Shown here one piece after another: positions 35,173 through 45,212 of a stretch of 64,000 nucleotides of DNA (position 1 is its first letter; each line of letters begins with the position of its first letter). A program made the position numbers and the translations under genes. Location: the sequence record PV173775. One strand, 5' to 3'. The notes below the pieces were generated by a model that did no database searches, had not been told where the DNA came from, and worked only from the letters and a program-made list of their open reading frames with translations. The stretch comes from Escherichia phage GEP001.

Positions 35173-35508
35173 ATGTCTGAAGTACAACAGCTACCAATTC
35201 GTGCTGTCGGTGAATTTGTTATTTTAGTTTCTGAACCTGCGCAAGCCGGTGATGAAGAAGTTACAGAATCAGGACTTATTATCGGTAAACGTGTTCAAGG
35301 TGAAGTTCCTGAACTGTGTGTAGTTCACTCCGTTGGTCCTGATGTTCCTGAAGGTTTCTGCGAAGTTGGTGATTTGACTTCTCTTCCAGTTGGTCAAATT
35401 CGAAACGTTCCGCATCCTTTTGTAGCTCTGGGACTTAAGCAGCCAAAAGAAATTAAACAAAAATTCGTTACCTGTCACTATAAAGCTATTCCGTGTCTTT
35501 ATAAGTGA
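35173..35508 (+). CDS. 31: co-chaperonin gp31 (GroES analogue), 111 aa
   Basis: Sequence matches recalled T4 gp31. Confidence 0.95.
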
Positions 35509-35516
35509 TATAAATA
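35509..35516 (+). promoter_or_regulatory. late promoter TATAAATA upstream of rIII
   Basis: Exact match. Confidence 0.5.
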
Positions 35517-35655
35517 ATAATATGAATTGGGTGTCGGAATAATAAGTTAACCGAACAATTCTACGTGGTAGTCTACAACTGAGAGATCTGTCGAAAGAAG
35601 ATGAAATTCAGAAGAACGTGACTACCGAGTTTTAATCTCTAATGAGAATTTTTAA

Positions 35656-35904
35656 ATGATTAAACAATTACAACACGCTCTTGAACTGCAACGAAACGCA
35701 TGGAATAATGGTCACGAAAACTATGGCGCATCTATTGATGTTGAAGCCGAAGCTCTTGAAATCCTGCGTTATTTCAAACATCTGAATCCTGCTCAAACTG
35801 CATTAGCTGCTGAGCTTCAGGAAAAAGATGAACTTAAATATGCTAAGCCTTTGGCTTCTGCCGCACGAAAAGCAGTTCGTCACTTTGTGGTAACACTGAA
35901 GTAA
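35656..35904 (+). CDS. rIII: lysis-inhibition accessory protein RIII (82 aa)
   Basis: Size and position after gene 31. Confidence 0.85.
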   Translation: MIKQLQHALELQRNAWNNGHENYGASIDVEAEALEILRYFKHLNPAQTALAAELQEKDELKYAKPLASAARKAVRHFVVTLK

Positions 35905-35982
35905 GTATGATGACGGGTTTATGGTTATCCTGGTCGTTAAATATTCAAAAACCTATGTTCCCCTTGAGGGCTTGCGCAGGCA

Positions 35983-36201
35983 ATGCCAATAAGTCCTGCA
36001 TTTTCATTTAAAAGAGAATTTATAATGGCAAAACAAGCTAAAGCAAAGAAAGCAGTTGAAAAGAAAGTTGGTGATTCTAAACGCGCTGGTTACAAGCGTG
36101 GGTCGAACTCTCGTATCAATCAAACTGTTGAGAAGATCATGCGCCGAGCACGTGCGGTTCTTCGAGATGATGCTTCTCGTTTTGGTAAGCAGAAAGCATA
36201 A
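35983..36201 (+). CDS. small basic protein, 72 aa (alternative start at 36026 gives 58 aa)
   Basis: Lys/Arg-rich ORF followed by strong terminator hairpin. Confidence 0.5.
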   Translation: MPISPAFSFKREFIMAKQAKAKKAVEKKVGDSKRAGYKRGSNSRINQTVEKIMRRARAVLRDDASRFGKQKA

Positions 36202-36206
36202 GTTGA

Positions 36207-36234
36207 GGACTCCTTCGGGAGTCCTTTTTTATTT
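36207..36234 (+). terminator. intrinsic terminator (ggactcc-ttcg-ggagtcc plus T-run)
   Basis: Perfect 7-bp stem, UUCG loop, 10-nt T-rich tail. Confidence 0.7.
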
Positions 36235-36254
36235 TCCAAAGATTGCACAAAGTT

Positions 36255-36284
36255 GTTTACAGTATGGTTCCTTTGTGATAGTAT
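36255..36284 (+). promoter_or_regulatory. early promoter following terminator hairpin (PeSL-like)
   Basis: GTTTAC, 18-nt spacer, TAGTAT; hairpin 36207-36234 just upstream. Confidence 0.6.
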
Positions 36285-36311
36285 TATCTTACACAAACAA
36301 AGGAGAATAAA

Positions 36312-36644
36312 ATGAAAACGATTAATCTAAACGCTGCGGTTAAAACTAAATGCTTCAATGGTAAATATGATGAAACTATGTGGTTCTTAATGGCAGTTGA
36401 AGGTGATATTATTGAAGTAGAAACAACAGAAGGTATGGGAACAGATTTCACCTTTACAATTCAAGTTCATAATTTCTTTACTGGTTGGATTTATGAATTG
36501 AATACAGTAATCGTTGGAAAAATTGAACAAAATGAATCAGGTGAATGGTATTATGTTACAGCTCGCCAACGTGCCGAACGCTTAATTGAGAAGATGAAAA
36601 AAGTTGGTAAACTTGACATGCAACATTGGAAAGTAGTAAAATAA
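36312..36644 (+). CDS. hypothetical protein, 110 aa
   Basis: ORF after early promoter 36255-36284. Confidence 0.7.
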   Translation: MKTINLNAAVKTKCFNGKYDETMWFLMAVEGDIIEVETTEGMGTDFTFTIQVHNFFTGWIYELNTVIVGKIEQNESGEWYYVTARQRAERLIEKMKKVGKLDMQHWKVVK

Positions 36645-36646
36645 TT

Positions 36647-36675
36647 GTTTACTTTGGTACAGGATATGATATTAT
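36647..36675 (+). promoter_or_regulatory. early promoter (GTTTAC / TGaTATTAT)
   Basis: Consensus match. Confidence 0.6.
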
Positions 36676-36712
36676 ATACCTGTACCGCAATTAAACATCT
36701 CGGAGAATAAAA

Positions 36713-37078
36713 ATGAACTACATCAATTTTGAACGTAAATATGTTTCTAATGGTATTGCAGGTTCTATTGATACTATCTGCCTTTGGAAACATCAAAATG
36801 GATCAGTATGCGAAATTGAACAGTATATGACTCCTAACTACGTTTATATGCGATTTGAAAATGGCATCACGGTTTCAATCACGAAAGAAGGTTCTTCTTT
36901 TAAAATCGCATTAGATGATGATTTCCGTCAACGCGATTTAGGGACTCATCCTTGCTGGAATGGTGTTAATCGTAAGCTTCTGGTTAAAACTTGGATTCGT
37001 CATATTCTGAGCAACAGAGCTAAACCTGAGCATCTTGAAGCAATCTTTGATGTAGTTCTTAACGAATTTGATATTTAA
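36713..37078 (+). CDS. hypothetical protein, 121 aa
   Basis: ORF after early promoter 36647-36675. Confidence 0.7.
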   Translation: MNYINFERKYVSNGIAGSIDTICLWKHQNGSVCEIEQYMTPNYVYMRFENGITVSITKEGSSFKIALDDDFRQRDLGTHPCWNGVNRKLLVKTWIRHILSNRAKPEHLEAIFDVVLNEFDI

Positions 37079-37119
37079 AATAAAATAAGGGGCTTCGGCC
37101 CCTTACTGAGGAAAATATT

Positions 37120-37407
37120 ATGTTTATGACTACTTATTTTGATACCCGTAAAAATTTCTGTGAAGTGGTTTTCTCTAAGGCACCTAAAGGCCTTCCTGCT
37201 CATTTGCAACCTACCAGTGAATCGATTAAAAACTACGTTAATGTAGTATGTCCTTTAGAGTTCCGTACTGTAAATGGACGTGATACTCTAGCAATCATTA
37301 AACTCAATCGTGAAATTGACATTGACCCTTCAATTGCGCGTGAAATTAATATTTCTGACATTGGTGGTGGTAATGTTAAATCGCATGGTTTTCAGATGAG
37401 GTTCTAA
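37120..37407 (+). CDS. hypothetical protein, 95 aa
   Basis: ORF. Confidence 0.6.
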   Translation: MFMTTYFDTRKNFCEVVFSKAPKGLPAHLQPTSESIKNYVNVVCPLEFRTVNGRDTLAIIKLNREIDIDPSIAREINISDIGGGNVKSHGFQMRF

Positions 37408-37604
37408 TGAAATTCTTTTTGGGTCAAACTGTTGAATTAAAGGGAGTCGGTATACCTGGATTAATTTCTAAGGTTTTGCCTGCATTTAAATGGAGAGACG
37501 TTCAAATAAAAGAAGCTTATATTGTTTCCTGGGTAGATGGAAATGAAGACCTTCGTATGGGTGATGAATTATCTCCTATCTATGGATTAAAGGAATTAGT
37601 ATGA
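37407..37604 (+). CDS. hypothetical protein, 65 aa
   Basis: ORF. Confidence 0.55.
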   Translation: MKFFLGQTVELKGVGIPGLISKVLPAFKWRDVQIKEAYIVSWVDGNEDLRMGDELSPIYGLKELV

Positions 37605-37807
37605 ATATAATTAATAAGATTTTTGGAATTCAGTACATTAAGGTCACATATAAAGTAACATATAAAGGTCCGTATACCGATGAACATGAAGAACCACAAG
37701 TTATGTCTATTATATTAGAAAAGGACCCTAACTGGCCAGTTGAATTTCGTCTTCCTTGCTATGGTCATTGGGCTGATGTTGAAATTATAAGTATTGAAAA
37801 TGTCTGA
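37601..37807 (+). CDS. hypothetical protein, 68 aa
   Basis: ORF. Confidence 0.55.
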   Translation: MNIINKIFGIQYIKVTYKVTYKGPYTDEHEEPQVMSIILEKDPNWPVEFRLPCYGHWADVEIISIENV

Positions 37808-38258
37808 GCTAGAAATAAGAAGCAATTTTAGATGGCCATCATGTGCATTAAGCAATTTCGCCCAATGGCCTTTCGTTATGGATGGTATCCAATTTGGAGG
37901 TCTCGAAGGATTCCTCCAAGGATGTAAGGTGAAAAATGTTGAACAGCAAAGACGTATATTTGGGTTATCCGGGCTTGCCGCCCAACAAGCTGGAAGGTCT
38001 TATGCTAGAGCTCAGGACCGTGGCACGTTGTTCTGGCTTGGAACTCCGTTTTCAAGATATTCCGAAGCATGGAAAGAATTATACACAAATGCATATTTTG
38101 AAGCAGCGATCCAAAACAGGGGTTTTCGTGATGCATTACAAGCCTCGAAAGGAAAAGTTTTGAAGCACAGCATGGCTAGTGGTCTAACAAAAGATGATAC
38201 AATACTAACCGAAGCTGAATTTATTGATGTGTTAAACCTATTAAGAGACTCTCTATGA
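37794..38258 (+). CDS. NADAR/YbiA-like (DUF1768) protein, 154 aa (30.3-like)
   Basis: Pattern LSNF...PF..DG..F...E...Q..K resembling NADAR family; no search run. Confidence 0.5.
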   Translation: MKMSELEIRSNFRWPSCALSNFAQWPFVMDGIQFGGLEGFLQGCKVKNVEQQRRIFGLSGLAAQQAGRSYARAQDRGTLFWLGTPFSRYSEAWKELYTNAYFEAAIQNRGFRDALQASKGKVLKHSMASGLTKDDTILTEAEFIDVLNLLRDSL

Positions 38259-39094
38259 AGCCAACTATTTTAACTGATATTGATGGAGTTTGTTTAAGCT
38301 GGCAATCAGGCCTTCCTTATTTTGCTCAAAAATATAATCTTCCATTAGAACATATTTTAAAAATGATCCAAGATGAGAAATTTATTTCTCCAGGTAAACT
38401 CTTTAATTGTGACGAAGAACTTGGCGTCAAGTTAATTGAAAAATACAATCGTTCAGATTTTATTCGTTACTTGTCTCCGTATAAAGATGCCCTGTGTGTA
38501 ATTAACAAATTAAAAGAAGATTATAATTTTGTAGCTGTTACAGCATTGGGTGATTCTATTGACGCTCTGTTGAATCGTCAATTTAATTTGAATGCTCTTT
38601 TTCCCGGTGCCTTCTCAGAAGTAATGATGTGTGGTCATGATTCTTCAAAAGAAGAGCTGTTCAAAAAGGCAAAAGAGAAATATAACGTAATTTGTTATAT
38701 TGACGATCTCGCTCATCACTGCGATCATGCGAGTGAAATATTAAATGTTCCTGTTTATTGGATGGCTCGAGGAGAGCGTGACAATATTCCAAAAACTGCA
38801 CAGCGAGTTTATACATGGAATGATGTAGAAAATAAGCTTTTTTCGCCGAAGGAAAATAAAGAAAGTTTTGATAGTGAAAAAGCTATAAAAGATTTAATTG
38901 AGAAGATGGTTAAAAACGATTCTTTTCCTTGGAACACTACCTGGAGAACGCCTGGATTTAATCCTTATAATCATCTATATCATCCATATCAGACACATCC
39001 GTTTCAGACATGGAACTATATTAAACCTGGTGGCATAGAGTATTTGTATAATAGACCTACTTGTGGTGATAATATTTTCCAAGGAGCATTCTAA
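38255..39094 (+). CDS. HAD-superfamily hydrolase-like protein, 279 aa (30.2-like)
   Basis: N-terminal DxDGV motif (TDIDGV). Confidence 0.6.
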   Translation: MKPTILTDIDGVCLSWQSGLPYFAQKYNLPLEHILKMIQDEKFISPGKLFNCDEELGVKLIEKYNRSDFIRYLSPYKDALCVINKLKEDYNFVAVTALGDSIDALLNRQFNLNALFPGAFSEVMMCGHDSSKEELFKKAKEKYNVICYIDDLAHHCDHASEILNVPVYWMARGERDNIPKTAQRVYTWNDVENKLFSPKENKESFDSEKAIKDLIEKMVKNDSFPWNTTWRTPGFNPYNHLYHPYQTHPFQTWNYIKPGGIEYLYNRPTCGDNIFQGAF

Positions 39095-39363
39095 TGTTTG
39101 TTGTTCACACTATTTATGAAAATGAAGGTAATACTACACGTGATTATGGTCACGTAAATCAATTTTTTAGATGCAATCCAGAATTCCGAGCTCAAAAAGA
39201 CGAACGAATTTTTAAAAAATGTGTAGAGCAAGGTTTCATTTACGTCAAGCACTGGATGCAAGGAAATAAAGTTAGAACTACATATCATAAGTCTTTGCCT
39301 GAGCTTAATGATGAATTGATTTATAATAGAGCTGTAAATCAAACTCTGAAGGATGAACAATGA
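39094..39363 (+). CDS. hypothetical protein, 89 aa
   Basis: ORF coupled to gene 30. Confidence 0.6.
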   Translation: MFVVHTIYENEGNTTRDYGHVNQFFRCNPEFRAQKDERIFKKCVEQGFIYVKHWMQGNKVRTTYHKSLPELNDELIYNRAVNQTLKDEQ

Positions 39364-40820
39364 TTCTTAAAATTCTGAATGAAATAGCATCTATTGGATC
39401 AACTAAGCAGAAGCAAGCAATTCTTGAAAAGAATAAAGATAATGAATTGCTTAAACGAGTATATCGTCTGACTTATTCTCGTGGGTTACAGTATTATATC
39501 AAGAAATGGCCTAAACCTGGTATTGCTACCCAGAGTTTTGGAATGCTGACTATTACCGATATGCTTGACTTCATTGAATTCACGTTAGCTACTCGGAAAT
39601 TGACTGGAAATGCAGCAATTGAGGAATTAACTGGATATATCACTGACGGTAAAAAGGATGATGTTGAAGTTTTACGTCGAGTTATGATGCGAGACCTTGA
39701 ATGCGGTGCTTCAGTATCTATTGCAAACAAAGTTTGGCCAGGTTTAATTCCTGAACAACCTCAAATGCTGGCAAGTTCTTATGATGAAAAAGGCATTAGT
39801 AAGAATATCAAGTTTCCAGCTTTTGCGCAGTTAAAAGCAGATGGAGCTCGGTGTTTTGCTGAAGTTAGAGGTGATGAATTAGATGATGTTCGTCTTTTAT
39901 CACGAGCTGGCAATGAATATCTAGGATTAGATCTTCTTAAGGAAGAGTTAATCAAAATGACTGCTGAAGCCCGCCAGATTCATCCAGAAGGTGTGTTAAT
40001 TGATGGCGAATTGGTATACCATGAGCAAGTTGAAAAGGAACCAGAAGGCCTAGATTTTCTTTTTGATGCTCCTGAAATCAGTAAAGCTAAAGAGTTTGCC
40101 GAAGTAGCTGAATCTCGTACTGCTTCTAATGGAATCGCCAATAAATCTTTAAAGGGAACTATTTCAGAAAAAGAAGCCAAATGCATGAAGTTTCAGGTCT
40201 GGGATTATGTTCCGTTGGTAGAAATATACGGTCTTCCGGCGTTTCGTTTAAAATATGATGTACGTTTTTCTAAACTAGAACAAATGACATCAGGATATGA
40301 TAAAGTAATTTTAATTGAAAACCAGCTAGTAAATAACCTAGATGAAGCTAAGGTAATTTATAAAAAGTATATTGACCAAGGTCTTGAAGGTATTATTCTC
40401 AAAAATACCGATGGATTGTGGGAAAATGCTCGTTCAAAAAATCTCTATAAATTTAAAGAAGTAATTGATGTTGATTTAAAAATTGTAGGAATTTATCCTC
40501 ACCGTAAAGACCCTACTAAAGCAGGTGGATTTATTCTTGAATCAGAGTGTGGAAAAATTAAAGTAAATGCAGGTTCAGGCTTAAAAGATAAAGCTGGTGT
40601 AAAATCACATGAACTTGACCGTACTCGCATTATGGAAAACCAAAATTATTATATTGGAAAAATTCTAGAGTGCGAATGCAACGGTTGGTTAAAATCTGAT
40701 GGCCGCACTGATTACGTTAAATTATTTCTTCCGATTGCGATTCGTTTACGTGAAGATAAAACTAAAGCTAATACATTCGAGGATGTATTTGGTGATTTTC
40801 ATGAGGTAACTGGTCTATGA
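39360..40820 (+). CDS. 30: ATP-dependent DNA ligase gp30 (486 aa)
   Basis: Adenylation motif KADGAR; size matches T4 ligase. Confidence 0.95.
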   Translation: MILKILNEIASIGSTKQKQAILEKNKDNELLKRVYRLTYSRGLQYYIKKWPKPGIATQSFGMLTITDMLDFIEFTLATRKLTGNAAIEELTGYITDGKKDDVEVLRRVMMRDLECGASVSIANKVWPGLIPEQPQMLASSYDEKGISKNIKFPAFAQLKADGARCFAEVRGDELDDVRLLSRAGNEYLGLDLLKEELIKMTAEARQIHPEGVLIDGELVYHEQVEKEPEGLDFLFDAPEISKAKEFAEVAESRTASNGIANKSLKGTISEKEAKCMKFQVWDYVPLVEIYGLPAFRLKYDVRFSKLEQMTSGYDKVILIENQLVNNLDEAKVIYKKYIDQGLEGIILKNTDGLWENARSKNLYKFKEVIDVDLKIVGIYPHRKDPTKAGGFILESECGKIKVNAGSGLKDKAGVKSHELDRTRIMENQNYYIGKILECECNGWLKSDGRTDYVKLFLPIAIRLREDKTKANTFEDVFGDFHEVTGL

Positions 40821-41005
40821 AAGCTTACTTAGAAACAATTGTTATAGCTCAAAAAGAAGGTGGAGATGTTTCTACTTCTGTATCACAAGTCATTCTCGAA
40901 TTTGTAGATGCATATGCTTATAATAAATTTACAGAAACATTTGATGCCTATGAAAAAGGGCCAAAGTTTGAAATATATCGTACTCTCTTACCATTAGATT
41001 ATTAA
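40817..41005 (+). CDS. hypothetical protein, 62 aa
   Basis: ORF. Confidence 0.55.
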   Translation: MKAYLETIVIAQKEGGDVSTSVSQVILEFVDAYAYNKFTETFDAYEKGPKFEIYRTLLPLDY

Positions 41006-41026
41006 AGGCCTTCGGGCCTTTAATTT

Positions 41027-41034
41027 TATAAATA
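41027..41034 (+). promoter_or_regulatory. late promoter TATAAATA for alt
   Basis: Exact match 21 nt upstream of alt start; alt is a late packaged protein. Confidence 0.7.
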
Positions 41035-41057
41035 GAATAAACACTAGAGAGGATATG

Positions 41058-43151
41058 ATGGAACTCATTACAGAATTATTTGACGAAGATACTACTCTTC
41101 CGATTACAAACTTAAATCCAAAGAAGAAAATACCGCAAATTTTTTCAGTTCATGTTGATGACGCAATTGAACAACCAGGCTTTCGTTTATGTACCTATAC
41201 ATCTGGAGGTGATACTAACCGTGATTTAAAGATGGGCGATAAAATGATGCATATTGTTCCTTTTACATTAACTGCTAAAGGTTCAATTGCTAAATTAAAA
41301 GGTCTCGGTCCAAGCCCAATTAATTACATCAATTCAGTTTTTACTGTTGCAATGCAGACGATGCGCCAGTATAAAATTGATGCCTGTATGCTTCGTATTC
41401 TTAAGTCTAAAACTGCTGGTCAAGCTCGACAAATTCAAGTTATTGCTGATAGACTTATCCGTAGTCGTTCAGGCGGCAGATACGTCCTTCTTAAGGAACT
41501 CTGGGATTACGATAAAAAGTATGCATATATTCTTATACATCGCAAAAATGTATCACTAGAAGACATTCCAGGAGTTCCAGAAATTAGTACCGAGCTCTTT
41601 ACTAAAGTTGAATCGAAGGTCGGCGATGTTTATATCAATAAAGATACTGGAGCTCAAGTAACTAAAAATGAGGCAATTGCAGCATCTATTGCGCAAGAAA
41701 ATGATAAACGTTCTGACCAAGCTGTAATCGTTAAAGTTAAAATTTCCCGTAGAGCAATTGCACAAAGTCAGTCATTGGAATCTTCTAGATTTGAAAGTGA
41801 ATTATTCCAGAAATATGAATCTACCGCAGCTAATTTCAATAAACCTGCTACAGCTCCTTTAATTCCCGAAGCAGAAGAAATGAAGCTTGGAATTAATTCA
41901 TTAGCTTCTAAAACTAAGGCAGCAAAAATTATTGCCGAAGGAACCGCAGATGAACTTCACTATGACTATAAATTCTTTTCAAAAAGTGATGTTAATGAAG
42001 TTTCTGAAAAAATTAAAGATGTAATTCTTAATGCGATTAAAAATGAACCAACTACTTCAATAAAATGTTTAGAGAAGTATGCAGCAGCTATTAATAAATT
42101 CTTTGAAGAATATAAAGATACTTGGCTTGATAAACATAATAAAACTCGTAAAGGGCAGCCAGATGAAGTCTGGGAAGAAATAACTAAAAATTCCTGGAAC
42201 GCAGCAAAAACTAAATTCCTCAAACGAATGATTTATAGCTTTTCTGGAATTGGTGCAGGTCCAATGATTGATATTACTATTGCCCGTGATGGTTCTAAAT
42301 ATACTCCATCACAAAAGCGCGGCATTAGAGAGTATTGTGGTTCAGGATATACTGACATCAATAATCTTCTTTTGGGTCGTTACAATCCAGAACGATATGA
42401 TGTAATGAGTGAAAAAGAAATTGAATCTGCGATAAATAATTTAGATTCAGCTTTTGAAAATGGTGACCGTATACCAGAAGGCATTACAGTTTATCGTGCT
42501 CAAAGTATGACTGCTCCTATATACGAAGCGCTAGTTAAAAATAAAGTGTTCTATTTCAGAAATTTTGTATCTACTTCTTTAACTCCTATCATTTTTGGAC
42601 GTTTTGGAATTACACATGCTGGTATCGGTCTTTTAGAACCAGAAGCTCGTAATGAATTAACAGTTGATAAAAATGAAGAAGGAATAACTATTAATCCAAA
42701 CGAAATAAGAGCGTATAAAGAAAATCCTGAATACGTTAAAGTTCAAATAGGATGGGCAATTGATGGAGCTCATAAAGTTAATGTTGTATATCCAGGAAGT
42801 CTCGGAATAGCAACAGAAGCTGAAGTAATTCTACCACGCGGATTGATGGTCAAAGTTAATAAAATAACTGATGCTTCTAATAATGACGGAACAACATCTA
42901 ATAATACAAAACTCATTCAAGCTGAAGTTATGACTACGGAAGAACTCACCGAATCAGTCATTTATGACGGTGACCGTCTAATGGAAACCGGCGAAGTAGT
43001 TGCAATGACAGGTGATATTGAAATAGAAGACAGAGTTGACTTTGCATCATTTGTTTCATCAAATGTTAAACAGAAAGCAGAATCATCTCTCGGAATTATT
43101 GCGTCTTGCATAGATATTACAAACATGCCTTACAAGTTCGTTCAAGGATAA
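41058..43151 (+). CDS. alt: capsid-packaged ADP-ribosyltransferase Alt (697 aa)
   Basis: N-terminus MELITELFDEDTTLPITNL and body match recalled T4 Alt; R/STS/EAE-type motifs (YRAQ, FVSTSL, EAEVIL); late promoter upstream. Confidence 0.9.
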   Translation: MELITELFDEDTTLPITNLNPKKKIPQIFSVHVDDAIEQPGFRLCTYTSGGDTNRDLKMGDKMMHIVPFTLTAKGSIAKLKGLGPSPINYINSVFTVAMQTMRQYKIDACMLRILKSKTAGQARQIQVIADRLIRSRSGGRYVLLKELWDYDKKYAYILIHRKNVSLEDIPGVPEISTELFTKVESKVGDVYINKDTGAQVTKNEAIAASIAQENDKRSDQAVIVKVKISRRAIAQSQSLESSRFESELFQKYESTAANFNKPATAPLIPEAEEMKLGINSLASKTKAAKIIAEGTADELHYDYKFFSKSDVNEVSEKIKDVILNAIKNEPTTSIKCLEKYAAAINKFFEEYKDTWLDKHNKTRKGQPDEVWEEITKNSWNAAKTKFLKRMIYSFSGIGAGPMIDITIARDGSKYTPSQKRGIREYCGSGYTDINNLLLGRYNPERYDVMSEKEIESAINNLDSAFENGDRIPEGITVYRAQSMTAPIYEALVKNKVFYFRNFVSTSLTPIIFGRFGITHAGIGLLEPEARNELTVDKNEEGITINPNEIRAYKENPEYVKVQIGWAIDGAHKVNVVYPGSLGIATEAEVILPRGLMVKVNKITDASNNDGTTSNNTKLIQAEVMTTEELTESVIYDGDRLMETGEVVAMTGDIEIEDRVDFASFVSSNVKQKAESSLGIIASCIDITNMPYKFVQG

Positions 43152-43154
43152 ATC

Positions 43155-45212
43155 ATGGAACTTATTACAGAATTATTTGACGGCGCTTCGGCGCCGGTTG
43201 TTAACTTAAATCCTAAGCATAAAATACCTCAAATTTTTGCTATTCAAGCCGGTGAAGAAAGCGTGCTTCCTGGATTTAGATTTTGTACATACACCTCTGG
43301 CGGTGATACAAATAAAAACGTTAAGCCAGGCGATAAAATGATGCATATCGTAATGATAGGTGTTAATGAGAAACTATCATTAGTTAAACTTAAAAACTTA
43401 GGTGGAAATCCAATTGGTGTCATTAATGCGGTTTTTGATACTGCTCTTCAGACAATGAAACAGTACAAAATTGACGCATGCTTATTCCGCGTACTAAAGA
43501 GTAAAACAAATGGCGCAGCTCGACAAATTCAAGTTATTGCTGACCGTTTAGTACGTACTAAAGGAGCAGGTCGATATGTTCTTTTAAAAGAAATCTGGGA
43601 TTACGATAAAAAGTACGCATATATTATGGTTTACCGTAAAAATGCTAATTTAGAAGACATTCCAGGTGTACCTCCTATTTCAACTGAGTTATTCACAAAA
43701 GTTGAATCAAAGGTTGGTGATGTTTATGTAGATGTTAAAACAGGTAATGCTGTTCCTAAAGCTGTTGCTGTTGCTGCTTCTATTGCTTTAGAAAATGATA
43801 AGCGCACGGATCAAGCTGTTATTCAGAAAACTAAAATTAGTCGTCGATTAGCAGCACAAGCTCAATACTCTACTGTCGATGCTTCACTTCAGGGTGATAG
43901 CTTCGCTGCTAAGAAATATCAAGAGTTTGAATCTAAAGTTCCGGTATATAAAGCAGAAGGACCAATGAACTCCGGCGTTATTCAGGTTGGTTCAAACTTC
44001 AGCAAAGGAGCTATCGGTGGTATGAGAAGTGCTTCTCGTTTTAAATCTAATGATTATGAACTAGAAAGCTTCCGAAATCATATTGCATTGGCTCATGCAC
44101 GTTTACGTGATCCATCTATCAAGTTACAGAGCGATATAACATATCAAGGTTCTCAAGAATATTTAAAGAATAAAGAATTTTTTGATTATAAAACTGATAA
44201 AATTTTAAGCGATCTTGCTGACATTAATATTTCTAATAGCTTTGATGTTATTAAGAAAATTGTCAATGATTTAGTTAAAGGTTCTAAAGCCACACCAGAT
44301 GAAAAGGTAGCTATTGTTCAATTTGTCATGAATGGCATTTATAAATTGATTAATGAGTCTGCTTCTCAAGCGTATGAATATGCAAGTACTGAAGTACCCC
44401 CAAAAGGATTAACTCAAGCTGAGTCTGATGTAATTGAAGATTATTGCGCAGATTCATATGTTGAAATGAACTCGTTCCTTTTAGGTAAACCAGATTCTAC
44501 TCGTGAAGAATATATGGAACGAGCTATTAAACACATCGAGACAATGGATTCTGCTTTTGCCAAAGGATCAGTTCTTCCTCCAGGAACTACGCTTTACCGT
44601 GGCCAAGAAGTTACCTTTAAAACTTTACGTCATAATATTGAAAATAAAATGTTCTATTTTAAGAACTTCGTATCCACATCGCTTAAACCAAATATCTTCG
44701 GTGAGTATGGTAAAAACTATATGGCCCTAGATGATTCCGGCACAGTATTTTCTGGTGAAGGAGAAGGTTCAGTTGATGCTGAAGATTTGATGCATATGGG
44801 CAGTCATTCTGCGTATGCCAATGAAGATGCTGAAACTAGCGTTGGTATGGTAATTAAAGGAGCTGAGCGAATCAAAGTTATCGTTCCAGGTCATTTATCA
44901 GGATTTCCATCAGAAGCTGAAGTTATTTTACCGCGTGGAATTTTGCTGAAGATTAATAAAGTGAGTACGTACATGATGAAAGAAACTGCTTATAACAAGT
45001 ATCTAATCGAAGGCACAATCGTTCCTCCTTCTGAACAATTAGAAGAATCGGTATATGATGGTGACCATCTGATGGAAACTGGTGAAGTTCGTCCAATGAC
45101 TGGATTTAACCAATTCCTTGTAGAAGAATCAAAAGAAGAGGAAAACGAAGTTTCTCAAATCTTGGCTTCTTTGGTTAACATCAACGGAATGTCTAAAAAG
45201 TTCAAGATGTAG
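43155..45212 (+). CDS. second Alt-like ADP-ribosyltransferase paralogue (685 aa) with divergent central region
   Basis: Shares Alt N-terminal region and C-terminal catalytic motifs (YRGQ, FVSTSL, EAEVIL) but central ~250 aa differ. Confidence 0.8.
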   Translation: MELITELFDGASAPVVNLNPKHKIPQIFAIQAGEESVLPGFRFCTYTSGGDTNKNVKPGDKMMHIVMIGVNEKLSLVKLKNLGGNPIGVINAVFDTALQTMKQYKIDACLFRVLKSKTNGAARQIQVIADRLVRTKGAGRYVLLKEIWDYDKKYAYIMVYRKNANLEDIPGVPPISTELFTKVESKVGDVYVDVKTGNAVPKAVAVAASIALENDKRTDQAVIQKTKISRRLAAQAQYSTVDASLQGDSFAAKKYQEFESKVPVYKAEGPMNSGVIQVGSNFSKGAIGGMRSASRFKSNDYELESFRNHIALAHARLRDPSIKLQSDITYQGSQEYLKNKEFFDYKTDKILSDLADINISNSFDVIKKIVNDLVKGSKATPDEKVAIVQFVMNGIYKLINESASQAYEYASTEVPPKGLTQAESDVIEDYCADSYVEMNSFLLGKPDSTREEYMERAIKHIETMDSAFAKGSVLPPGTTLYRGQEVTFKTLRHNIENKMFYFKNFVSTSLKPNIFGEYGKNYMALDDSGTVFSGEGEGSVDAEDLMHMGSHSAYANEDAETSVGMVIKGAERIKVIVPGHLSGFPSEAEVILPRGILLKINKVSTYMMKETAYNKYLIEGTIVPPSEQLEESVYDGDHLMETGEVRPMTGFNQFLVEESKEEENEVSQILASLVNINGMSKKFKM

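Follow-up and report, generated by a model that had tools for sequence, protein, structure and literature searches.

A gene orthologous to T4 30.3 (adfN), predicted to encode a phage-type NADAR ADP-ribosylglycohydrolase, in Escherichia phage GEP001

Results

The window analysed here, a stretch of 64,000 nucleotides from Escherichia phage GEP001 (sequence record PV173775), carries an uninterrupted ORF at positions 37794-38258 of the + strand, in the place that gene 30.3 occupies in T4. It lies between 30.4 (37601-37807) and 30.2 (38255-39094) and upstream of the DNA ligase gene 30 (39360-40820; PF01068), where a sequence-only reading of the window had put it. The surrounding + strand genes follow the T4 order (NC_000866), namely 31 (35173-35508), rIII (35656-35904), 30.9 to 30.1, 30, alt.1 and alt. 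Gene 30.9, which was placed by order alone, and then 30.8 and 30.7 fill the interval between rIII and 30.6 (37120-37407); 30.5 (37407-37604), 30.4, 30.3, 30.2, 30.1 (39094-39363) and gene 30 come after it. All junctions from 30.6 through gene 30 overlap or abut directly, so that these genes form one tightly packed string, and around 30.3 both the order and the overlaps are those of NC_000866.

Positions 36000-42000 of the window share 98% nucleotide identity with Escherichia phage vB_EcoM_JE01, and at least 80% of this segment is covered in 492 phage records, mostly from Escherichia and Shigella Tequatrovirus. Genes flanking 30.3 showed 94-98% identity by tblastn. On these similarities we assign the window to a Tequatrovirus, that is, a T4-like phage.

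Downstream of gene 30, alt.1 (+) is followed by two full-length Alt-type ADP-ribosyltransferase genes on the + strand, alt (41055-43151) and a second gene directly after it (43155-45212, 685 aa). Both match PF03496 (E 1e-37 and 3e-20), and their products share 41% identity. The pair begins 2.8 kb downstream of 30.3, in agreement with the earlier statement that two ADP-ribosyltransferase genes lie about 3 kb away. At the site of the second Alt gene T4 has only short remnants, alt.-1 and alt.-2, annotated as an old duplication of the first part of alt.

A scan for promoters and terminators over 35500-41200 was uninformative (24 promoter-like sites versus 21.5 expected; 4 terminator-like sites versus 3.3 expected). 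We did observe a perfect GC-rich hairpin of the AATAAGGGGC-TTCG-GCCCCTTATT type with 10 pairs at 37084-37107, between 30.7 and 30.6, in the sole sizeable gap of the 30.x string; it scored as terminator-like on the - strand. A similar hairpin is found on the + strand at 36205-36226, after 30.9.

The ORF as read previously was 154 aa long, its TTG at 37794 having been picked mechanically as the start. In the T4 record, 30.3 is annotated at 459 nt (152 aa), and close homologues are called at 152 aa with MSELEI as their first residues. The published residue numbers E36 and K43 (PMC11825919) fit only the ATG at 37800, so we place the gene, adfN, at 37800-38258 (+; 152 aa plus stop). The in-frame TTG-AAA extension at 37794-37799 (+), which the earlier coordinates had included, is probably untranslated; the TTG start was rejected since the ATG is the start both in the T4 annotation and in the 152-aa homologues. 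The ORF itself therefore stands, with a six-base correction of its 5′-end to the ATG at 37800, the likely start.

Both ends of the gene overlap its neighbours in the same way as in T4. At the upstream end, ATGTCTGA (37800-37807, +) contains both the 30.3 start codon and the 30.4 stop codon, an 8-nt overlap that is identical in T4 and suggests that 30.4 and 30.3 may be translationally coupled. At the other end, the 30.3 stop codon shares the ATGA at 38255-38258 (+) with the start of 30.2, which encodes a HAD-like protein.

The window protein and T4 gp30.3 are equal in length and identical at 148 of 152 residues (97%), and a translated sequence in phage vB_EcoM_BMB16 matches the window protein completely (100% identity by tblastn). 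The Pfam family PF08010 (Phage_30_3) is matched over its full length (profile positions 1-138 of 138) with E 4.3e-69 and 231.1 bits against a cut-off of 36. As measures of sequence similarity, this match and the 148/152 identity are far beyond chance. E36, K43, H123 and the C-terminal helix are common to the T4 and window proteins. The four substitutions from T4 to the window (V82T, P89E, K106R and I125M) spare the invariant and near-invariant columns of a family alignment of 44 sequences, in which M is the consensus residue at position 125. By sequence comparison, we consider the gene to be the orthologue of T4 30.3, published as adfN (anti-DarT factor NADAR).

To place the protein in a superfamily, we used profile and structure searches. 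By itself, the window protein gave no match to the NADAR model PF08719, even with the threshold relaxed to E<=1. Apart from PF08010, single-sequence searches gave no PDB sequence at E<=10 and no NCBIfam or PADLOC match, and the only PHROGs match was phrog_652, 'unknown function'. We collected 93 homologues and aligned 44 of them (alignment A1; identity down to 35%). Seventeen of these 44 family members match PF08719 individually (best E 1.5e-7), one homologue cluster bears the two Pfam labels together, and several homologues are named 'YbiA (DUF1768 family)' by JGI. When the A1 profile was compared with PDB sequences, the single significant match was E. coli YbiA (2b3w; E 0.0017). In the resulting alignment L-S-N-F is paired with F-S-N-F, and s-m-E-G-F-L-Q-s-l-K-f with t-s-E-H-Y-F-Q-A-Q-K-F. 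At the sequence level, the proposed membership of the NADAR superfamily rests on profiles and transitivity. A comparison with NADAR/DUF1768 profiles was one check that the sequence-only reading had named, with the lack of a significant hit counting against it. The direct match was lacking, so this test, naively applied to the window protein, would wrongly reject the NADAR idea, which the individual family members and the A1 profile support.

An AlphaFold2 model built on A1 was confident (pLDDT 93.5, pTM 0.88), and structure searches with it returned the three solved NADARs and nothing else. With Foldseek, the best match was 2b3w (E 1.4e-5, TM 0.67), followed by 8bau and 8bat and then by noise at E>3. 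The predicted structure has the fold of YbiA, a helical core flanked by small sheets. Family profiles and structure together uphold the assignment to NADAR/YbiA-type enzymes that had been made from a motif, and we conclude from profiles and model that the protein is a predicted minimal, core-only NADAR-fold glycohydrolase.

The motif in question is present as it had been written, with C15-A-L-S-N-F20, P24-F25, D28-G29, F32 and E36-G-F-L-Q-G-C-K43 in ATG numbering. CALSNF (codons C15-F20; 37842-37859, +) is the conserved N-terminal NADAR motif; L17, S18, N19 and F20 are invariant in A1 and align with the FSNF of YbiA. The catalytic residues, whose absence would have spoken against a NADAR enzyme, are intact: the Glu and Lys of the E-x-x-x-Q-x-x-K motif are both present and aligned with those of YbiA. 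Glu36 (GAA, 37905-37907, +), catalytic and in contact with ADP-ribose, is invariant in the 44 sequences and corresponds to the Glu of YbiA 'SEHYFQAQKF'. Lys43 (AAG, 37926-37928, +), the conserved catalytic-site lysine, is at least 90% conserved in A1. In T4 AdfN, E36A abolishes activity in vitro and K43A impairs the enzyme (PMC11825919). A third position, His123 (CAC, 38166-38168, +), is invariant in A1; the model places it in the last beta-strand (residues 120-123). The classes are defined by the residue in the last strand: phage NADARs have His there, YbiA-type proteins Glu and DarT1-associated NADARs Asp (PMC11125620, PMC11543638). Through H123 the window protein would belong to the phage NADAR class, the equivalence of this residue to the Glu/Asp position following the same two studies.

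The model ends in a predicted C-terminal alpha-helix (residues 138-151; 38211-38252, +), which has no counterpart in the RB69 allele. In RB69, a 1-nt insertion in 30.3, absent from the window and from T4, leads to a stop after residue 137. RB69 gp30.3 is 95% identical over residues 1-137, but it is an inactive allele that has lost the last helix, whereas the window allele is intact. RB69 is the one T-even phage that is sensitive to DarTG1. Truncation of the C-terminus reduces activity, and the helix is needed for full activity (PMC11825919).

Disrupted adfN alleles also occur in some natural T-even genomes or contigs (homologues P0014, P0015, P0016, P0041 and P0092; compare window positions 36312-38258). 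In three of them the N-terminus of 30.7, 30.8 or 30.4 is joined in frame to the C-terminal part of 30.3 by a deletion that removes E36 and K43; the other two change frame between 30.3 and 30.3′. These sequences suggest that the block from 30.3 to 30.8 may be prone to deletion and that AdfN may have been lost in some lineages; sequencing errors are also possible.

The 30.3′ frame is an internal ORF of 75 aa (37936-38163, +) in the +1 frame of 30.3, annotated in the T4 record as 'internal translation in a different reading frame' and open in the window too. Between T4 and the window it is identical at 62 of 75 residues, compared with 148 of 152 for the overlapping 30.3 frame. Changes that leave the 30.3 protein unaltered do change 30.3′, an observation that speaks against purifying selection on the latter; as its sequence drifts much faster than that of 30.3, we set it aside as a second product of the locus. 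Judged by length, two distant 30.3 homologues have a similar open stretch (76-100 codons) in the +1 frame.

The neighbouring gp30.2 (38255-39094, +; 279 aa) has an N-terminal DIDGV motif, which we take to be HAD-like and typical of HAD phosphatases, and in some GenBank records its homologues are annotated as HAD-like hydrolase or phosphoserine phosphatase. It gave no Pfam, NCBIfam, PADLOC or PDB sequence match; in PHROGs it matched phrog_420 (unknown function) and showed weak similarity to a polynucleotide kinase family (E 0.002). A 30.2 homologue directly follows the 30.3 homologue, or lies within about 0.6 kb of it, in T4, RB69, Acinetobacter KARL-1, Klebsiella Slopekvirus and Aeromonas Aeh1. 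The pairing is thus found in every one of the five genera of Straboviridae that were examined (Tequatrovirus, Mosigvirus, Lazarusvirus, Slopekvirus and Cinqassovirus). No 30.2 homologue was found within 3 kb of the NADAR gene in Vibrio phage 6E35-1b, or within 6 kb of it in two metagenomic phage lineages. The tblastn match of gp30.2 ends at about residue 175-196 of 279 in Lazarusvirus, Slopekvirus and Cinqassovirus and at residue 234 in RB69, and judging by these matches the C-terminal part of the protein appears to be specific to close relatives of T4.

By tblastn, a 30.3 homologue was detected in 1510 GenBank phage records. About 730 of these are at least 80% identical and form the T-even group; in about 780, found in Klebsiella, Acinetobacter, Aeromonas, Vibrio, Enterobacter and other phages (mostly Straboviridae), identity is below 60%. 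Among the matches listed (40 of 1510), none is named NADAR or AdfN and almost all are annotated as 'hypothetical protein'. PF08010 is described only as 'Bacteriophage protein GP30.3', and a plain Pfam scan returns only the name 'Phage_30_3', without pointing to NADAR. We also found a 30.3 homologue (41% identity) in an unrelated-looking metagenomic phage on Logan contigs SRR26596529 and SRR26596527 (L005/L006; 690-6456). An ATP-dependent DNA ligase gene (28% identical to gp30) is located there 3.8 kb upstream of it, with a weakly T5-dNMPase-like gene in between, a layout that echoes the T4 ligase-30.x neighbourhood in reversed order.

Discussion

The T4 orthologue of the window gene has been characterised experimentally. 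Recombination between RB69 and T2 or T4 mapped resistance to gene 30.3, and T4 gp30.3, named AdfN, is necessary and sufficient for DarTG1 counter-defence (PMC11825919). In vitro, AdfN removes ADP-ribose from DarT1-modified DNA and does so without binding to DarT1 (PMC11825919). Resistance to DarTG1 during infection has been reported for the T4 and T2 alleles (PMC11825919; HIDEN-SEQ preprint, main text of bioRxiv 10.1101/2025.11.20.689424). The T4 NADAR strips guanosine-ADPr from DNA and leaves thymidine-ADPr untouched (PMC11125620), and a 2026 study again found it active on G-ADPr (PMC12945103). It is also active on RNA guanosine-ADPr, less efficiently than E. coli C7 NADAR (PMC11833690).

Two suggestions of the sequence-only reading, that the protein removes ADP-ribose from guanine in DNA and that it could counter host toxins that ADP-ribosylate DNA, are borne out by these experiments on the 97%-identical T4 orthologue (PMC11825919 and PMC11125620 for the former; for the latter, against DarT1, PMC11825919 and the preprint's main text), and by homology would hold for the window protein. 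Once the host DarTG1 system is triggered, its DarT1 toxin puts ADP-ribose on guanine in phage DNA, blocking replication (PMC11825919). In the mechanism that we propose, AdfN would then cut the N-glycosidic bond from the ribose to the guanine amino group, and the unmodified DNA so produced would allow phage replication. The enzyme would act as an orphan enzymatic 'antitoxin', without toxin binding. We infer that the window allele, with its four conservative substitutions outside conserved columns, behaves like T4 AdfN. Orthology to T4 adfN, together with a NADAR glycohydrolase that counters DarTG1 by guanine de-ADP-ribosylation, is very probably the right explanation of this locus.

Comparison with other NADARs places the window protein apart from the toxin-associated ones. 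DarG1, the DarT1-associated NADAR antitoxin (for example E. coli C7 NADAR and Geobacter lovleyi NADAR, PDB 8bat), differs in several respects. The window gene has no adjacent darT1: no ADP-ribosyltransferase domain was found in the ORFs flanking 30.3 (36312-39360), the nearest being those of the Alt genes (PF03496), 2.8 kb off. The window protein is core-only, with 152 aa versus 219 aa and without the N-terminal extension; it has His123 instead of Asp in the last strand and no PADLOC match, and its T4 orthologue AdfN fails to protect uninfected cells from DarT1 (PMC11825919, PMC11125620). The AdfN proteins of Bas32/Bas33 and Bas60-62 share the superfamily and the anti-DarTG1 role, but they fall in different NADAR clades, stem from independent acquisitions and need no T-even-specific helper (PMC11825919).

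We considered whether the protein might instead be a metabolic N-glycosidase that detoxifies reactive intermediates of the riboflavin pathway, the first role assigned to E. coli YbiA/COG3236, and take no part in nucleic-acid repair. E. coli YbiA (YbiA-type, PF08719) is after all its best Foldseek match and the only PDB match of its sequence profile, the SNF and E..Q..K motifs are common to both, and the JGI labels point the same way. At 18-21% identity, however, the likeness stops short of the class-defining residue: the last-strand Glu of YbiA is His123 in the window protein and His in all 44 family members. There are no riboflavin genes near 30.3, and whereas YbiA acts as a riboflavin-intermediate N-glycosidase and in swarming (PMC11125620), the T4 protein hydrolyses guanine-ADPr and has resistance to DarTG1 as its sole known phenotype (PMC11825919, PMC11125620; main text of bioRxiv 10.1101/2025.11.20.689424). 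We regard a metabolic role as extremely unlikely. A broader nucleic-acid guanosine de-ADP-ribosylase, with RNA guanosine-ADPr or the lesions of other guanine-specific toxins (pierisin/ScARP-like or YarT-like) as main targets, would fit the removal of ScARP-made guanosine-ADPr from DNA and RNA by T4 NADAR in vitro (PMC11125620, PMC12945103, PMC11833690) and the presence of the gene in at least 1510 phage records, with hosts that include Escherichia, Klebsiella, Acinetobacter, Aeromonas, Vibrio and Desulfovibrio. Yet in vivo a phenotype has been reported only against DarTG1 (PMC11825919; main text of the same preprint), and the RNA activity is weaker than that of E. coli C7 NADAR (PMC11833690). 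Such main targets seem to us very improbable, and this reading extends rather than replaces the explanation by AdfN and DarTG1.

Alt enzymes are protein ADP-ribosyltransferases that target RNA polymerase and other host proteins, as the T4 record also annotates them. With two PF03496 genes 2.8 kb downstream of 30.3, and an Alt-like gene also near the 30.3 homologue of Acinetobacter phage KARL-1, the NADAR could be thought to erase the ADP-ribosylation that the phage's own Alt paralogues (or ModA/ModB) place on host proteins or nucleic acids, as a writer-eraser pair. The 2.8 kb spacing, however, is conserved T4 gene order, and in other phage lineages no ADP-ribosyltransferase lies within 3-6 kb of distant 30.3 homologues. 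The NADAR activities reported in the cited literature are all on ADP-ribosylated nucleobases, thymidine-ADPr and phosphate-end ADPr not being substrates (PMC11125620, PMC12945103, PMC11833690). On these three grounds we rejected a functional link between 30.3 and Alt, and we rate the pairing as highly unlikely. The earlier suggestion that the phage both writes and erases ADP-ribosylation holds in so far as the genome encodes writers and an eraser; the proposed joint function with Alt is unsupported.

For the preferred reading, guanine de-ADP-ribosylation by an AdfN orthologue, a further question is what else the enzyme needs in vivo. T4 AdfN leaves uninfected E. coli unprotected from DarT1 (PMC11825919, PMC11125620) and only partially rescues T5 and Bas25, which are not T-even phages (PMC11825919). 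A T-even factor is therefore apparently needed for AdfN in vivo, and DNA hypermodification has been excluded as this factor (PMC11825919). It is unlikely, in our estimate, that the helper is the translationally coupled gp30.2. Adjacency of 30.3 and 30.2 in Straboviridae neither supports nor excludes gp30.2 as an obligatory partner of AdfN, since plain conserved synteny explains it equally well. The main text of the transposon-screen preprint (bioRxiv 10.1101/2025.11.20.689424) contains no mention of '30.2'.

The feature is already published and experimentally characterised in T4, and no new biology is claimed here. Annotation lags behind this work: among the matches listed, homologues go unnamed as NADAR or AdfN despite the characterisation of 2024-2025. 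By its sequence, the window has this characterised counter-defence gene in intact form, and the phage is predicted to resist the DarTG1 abortive-infection system, which is useful for host-range prediction and phage therapy.
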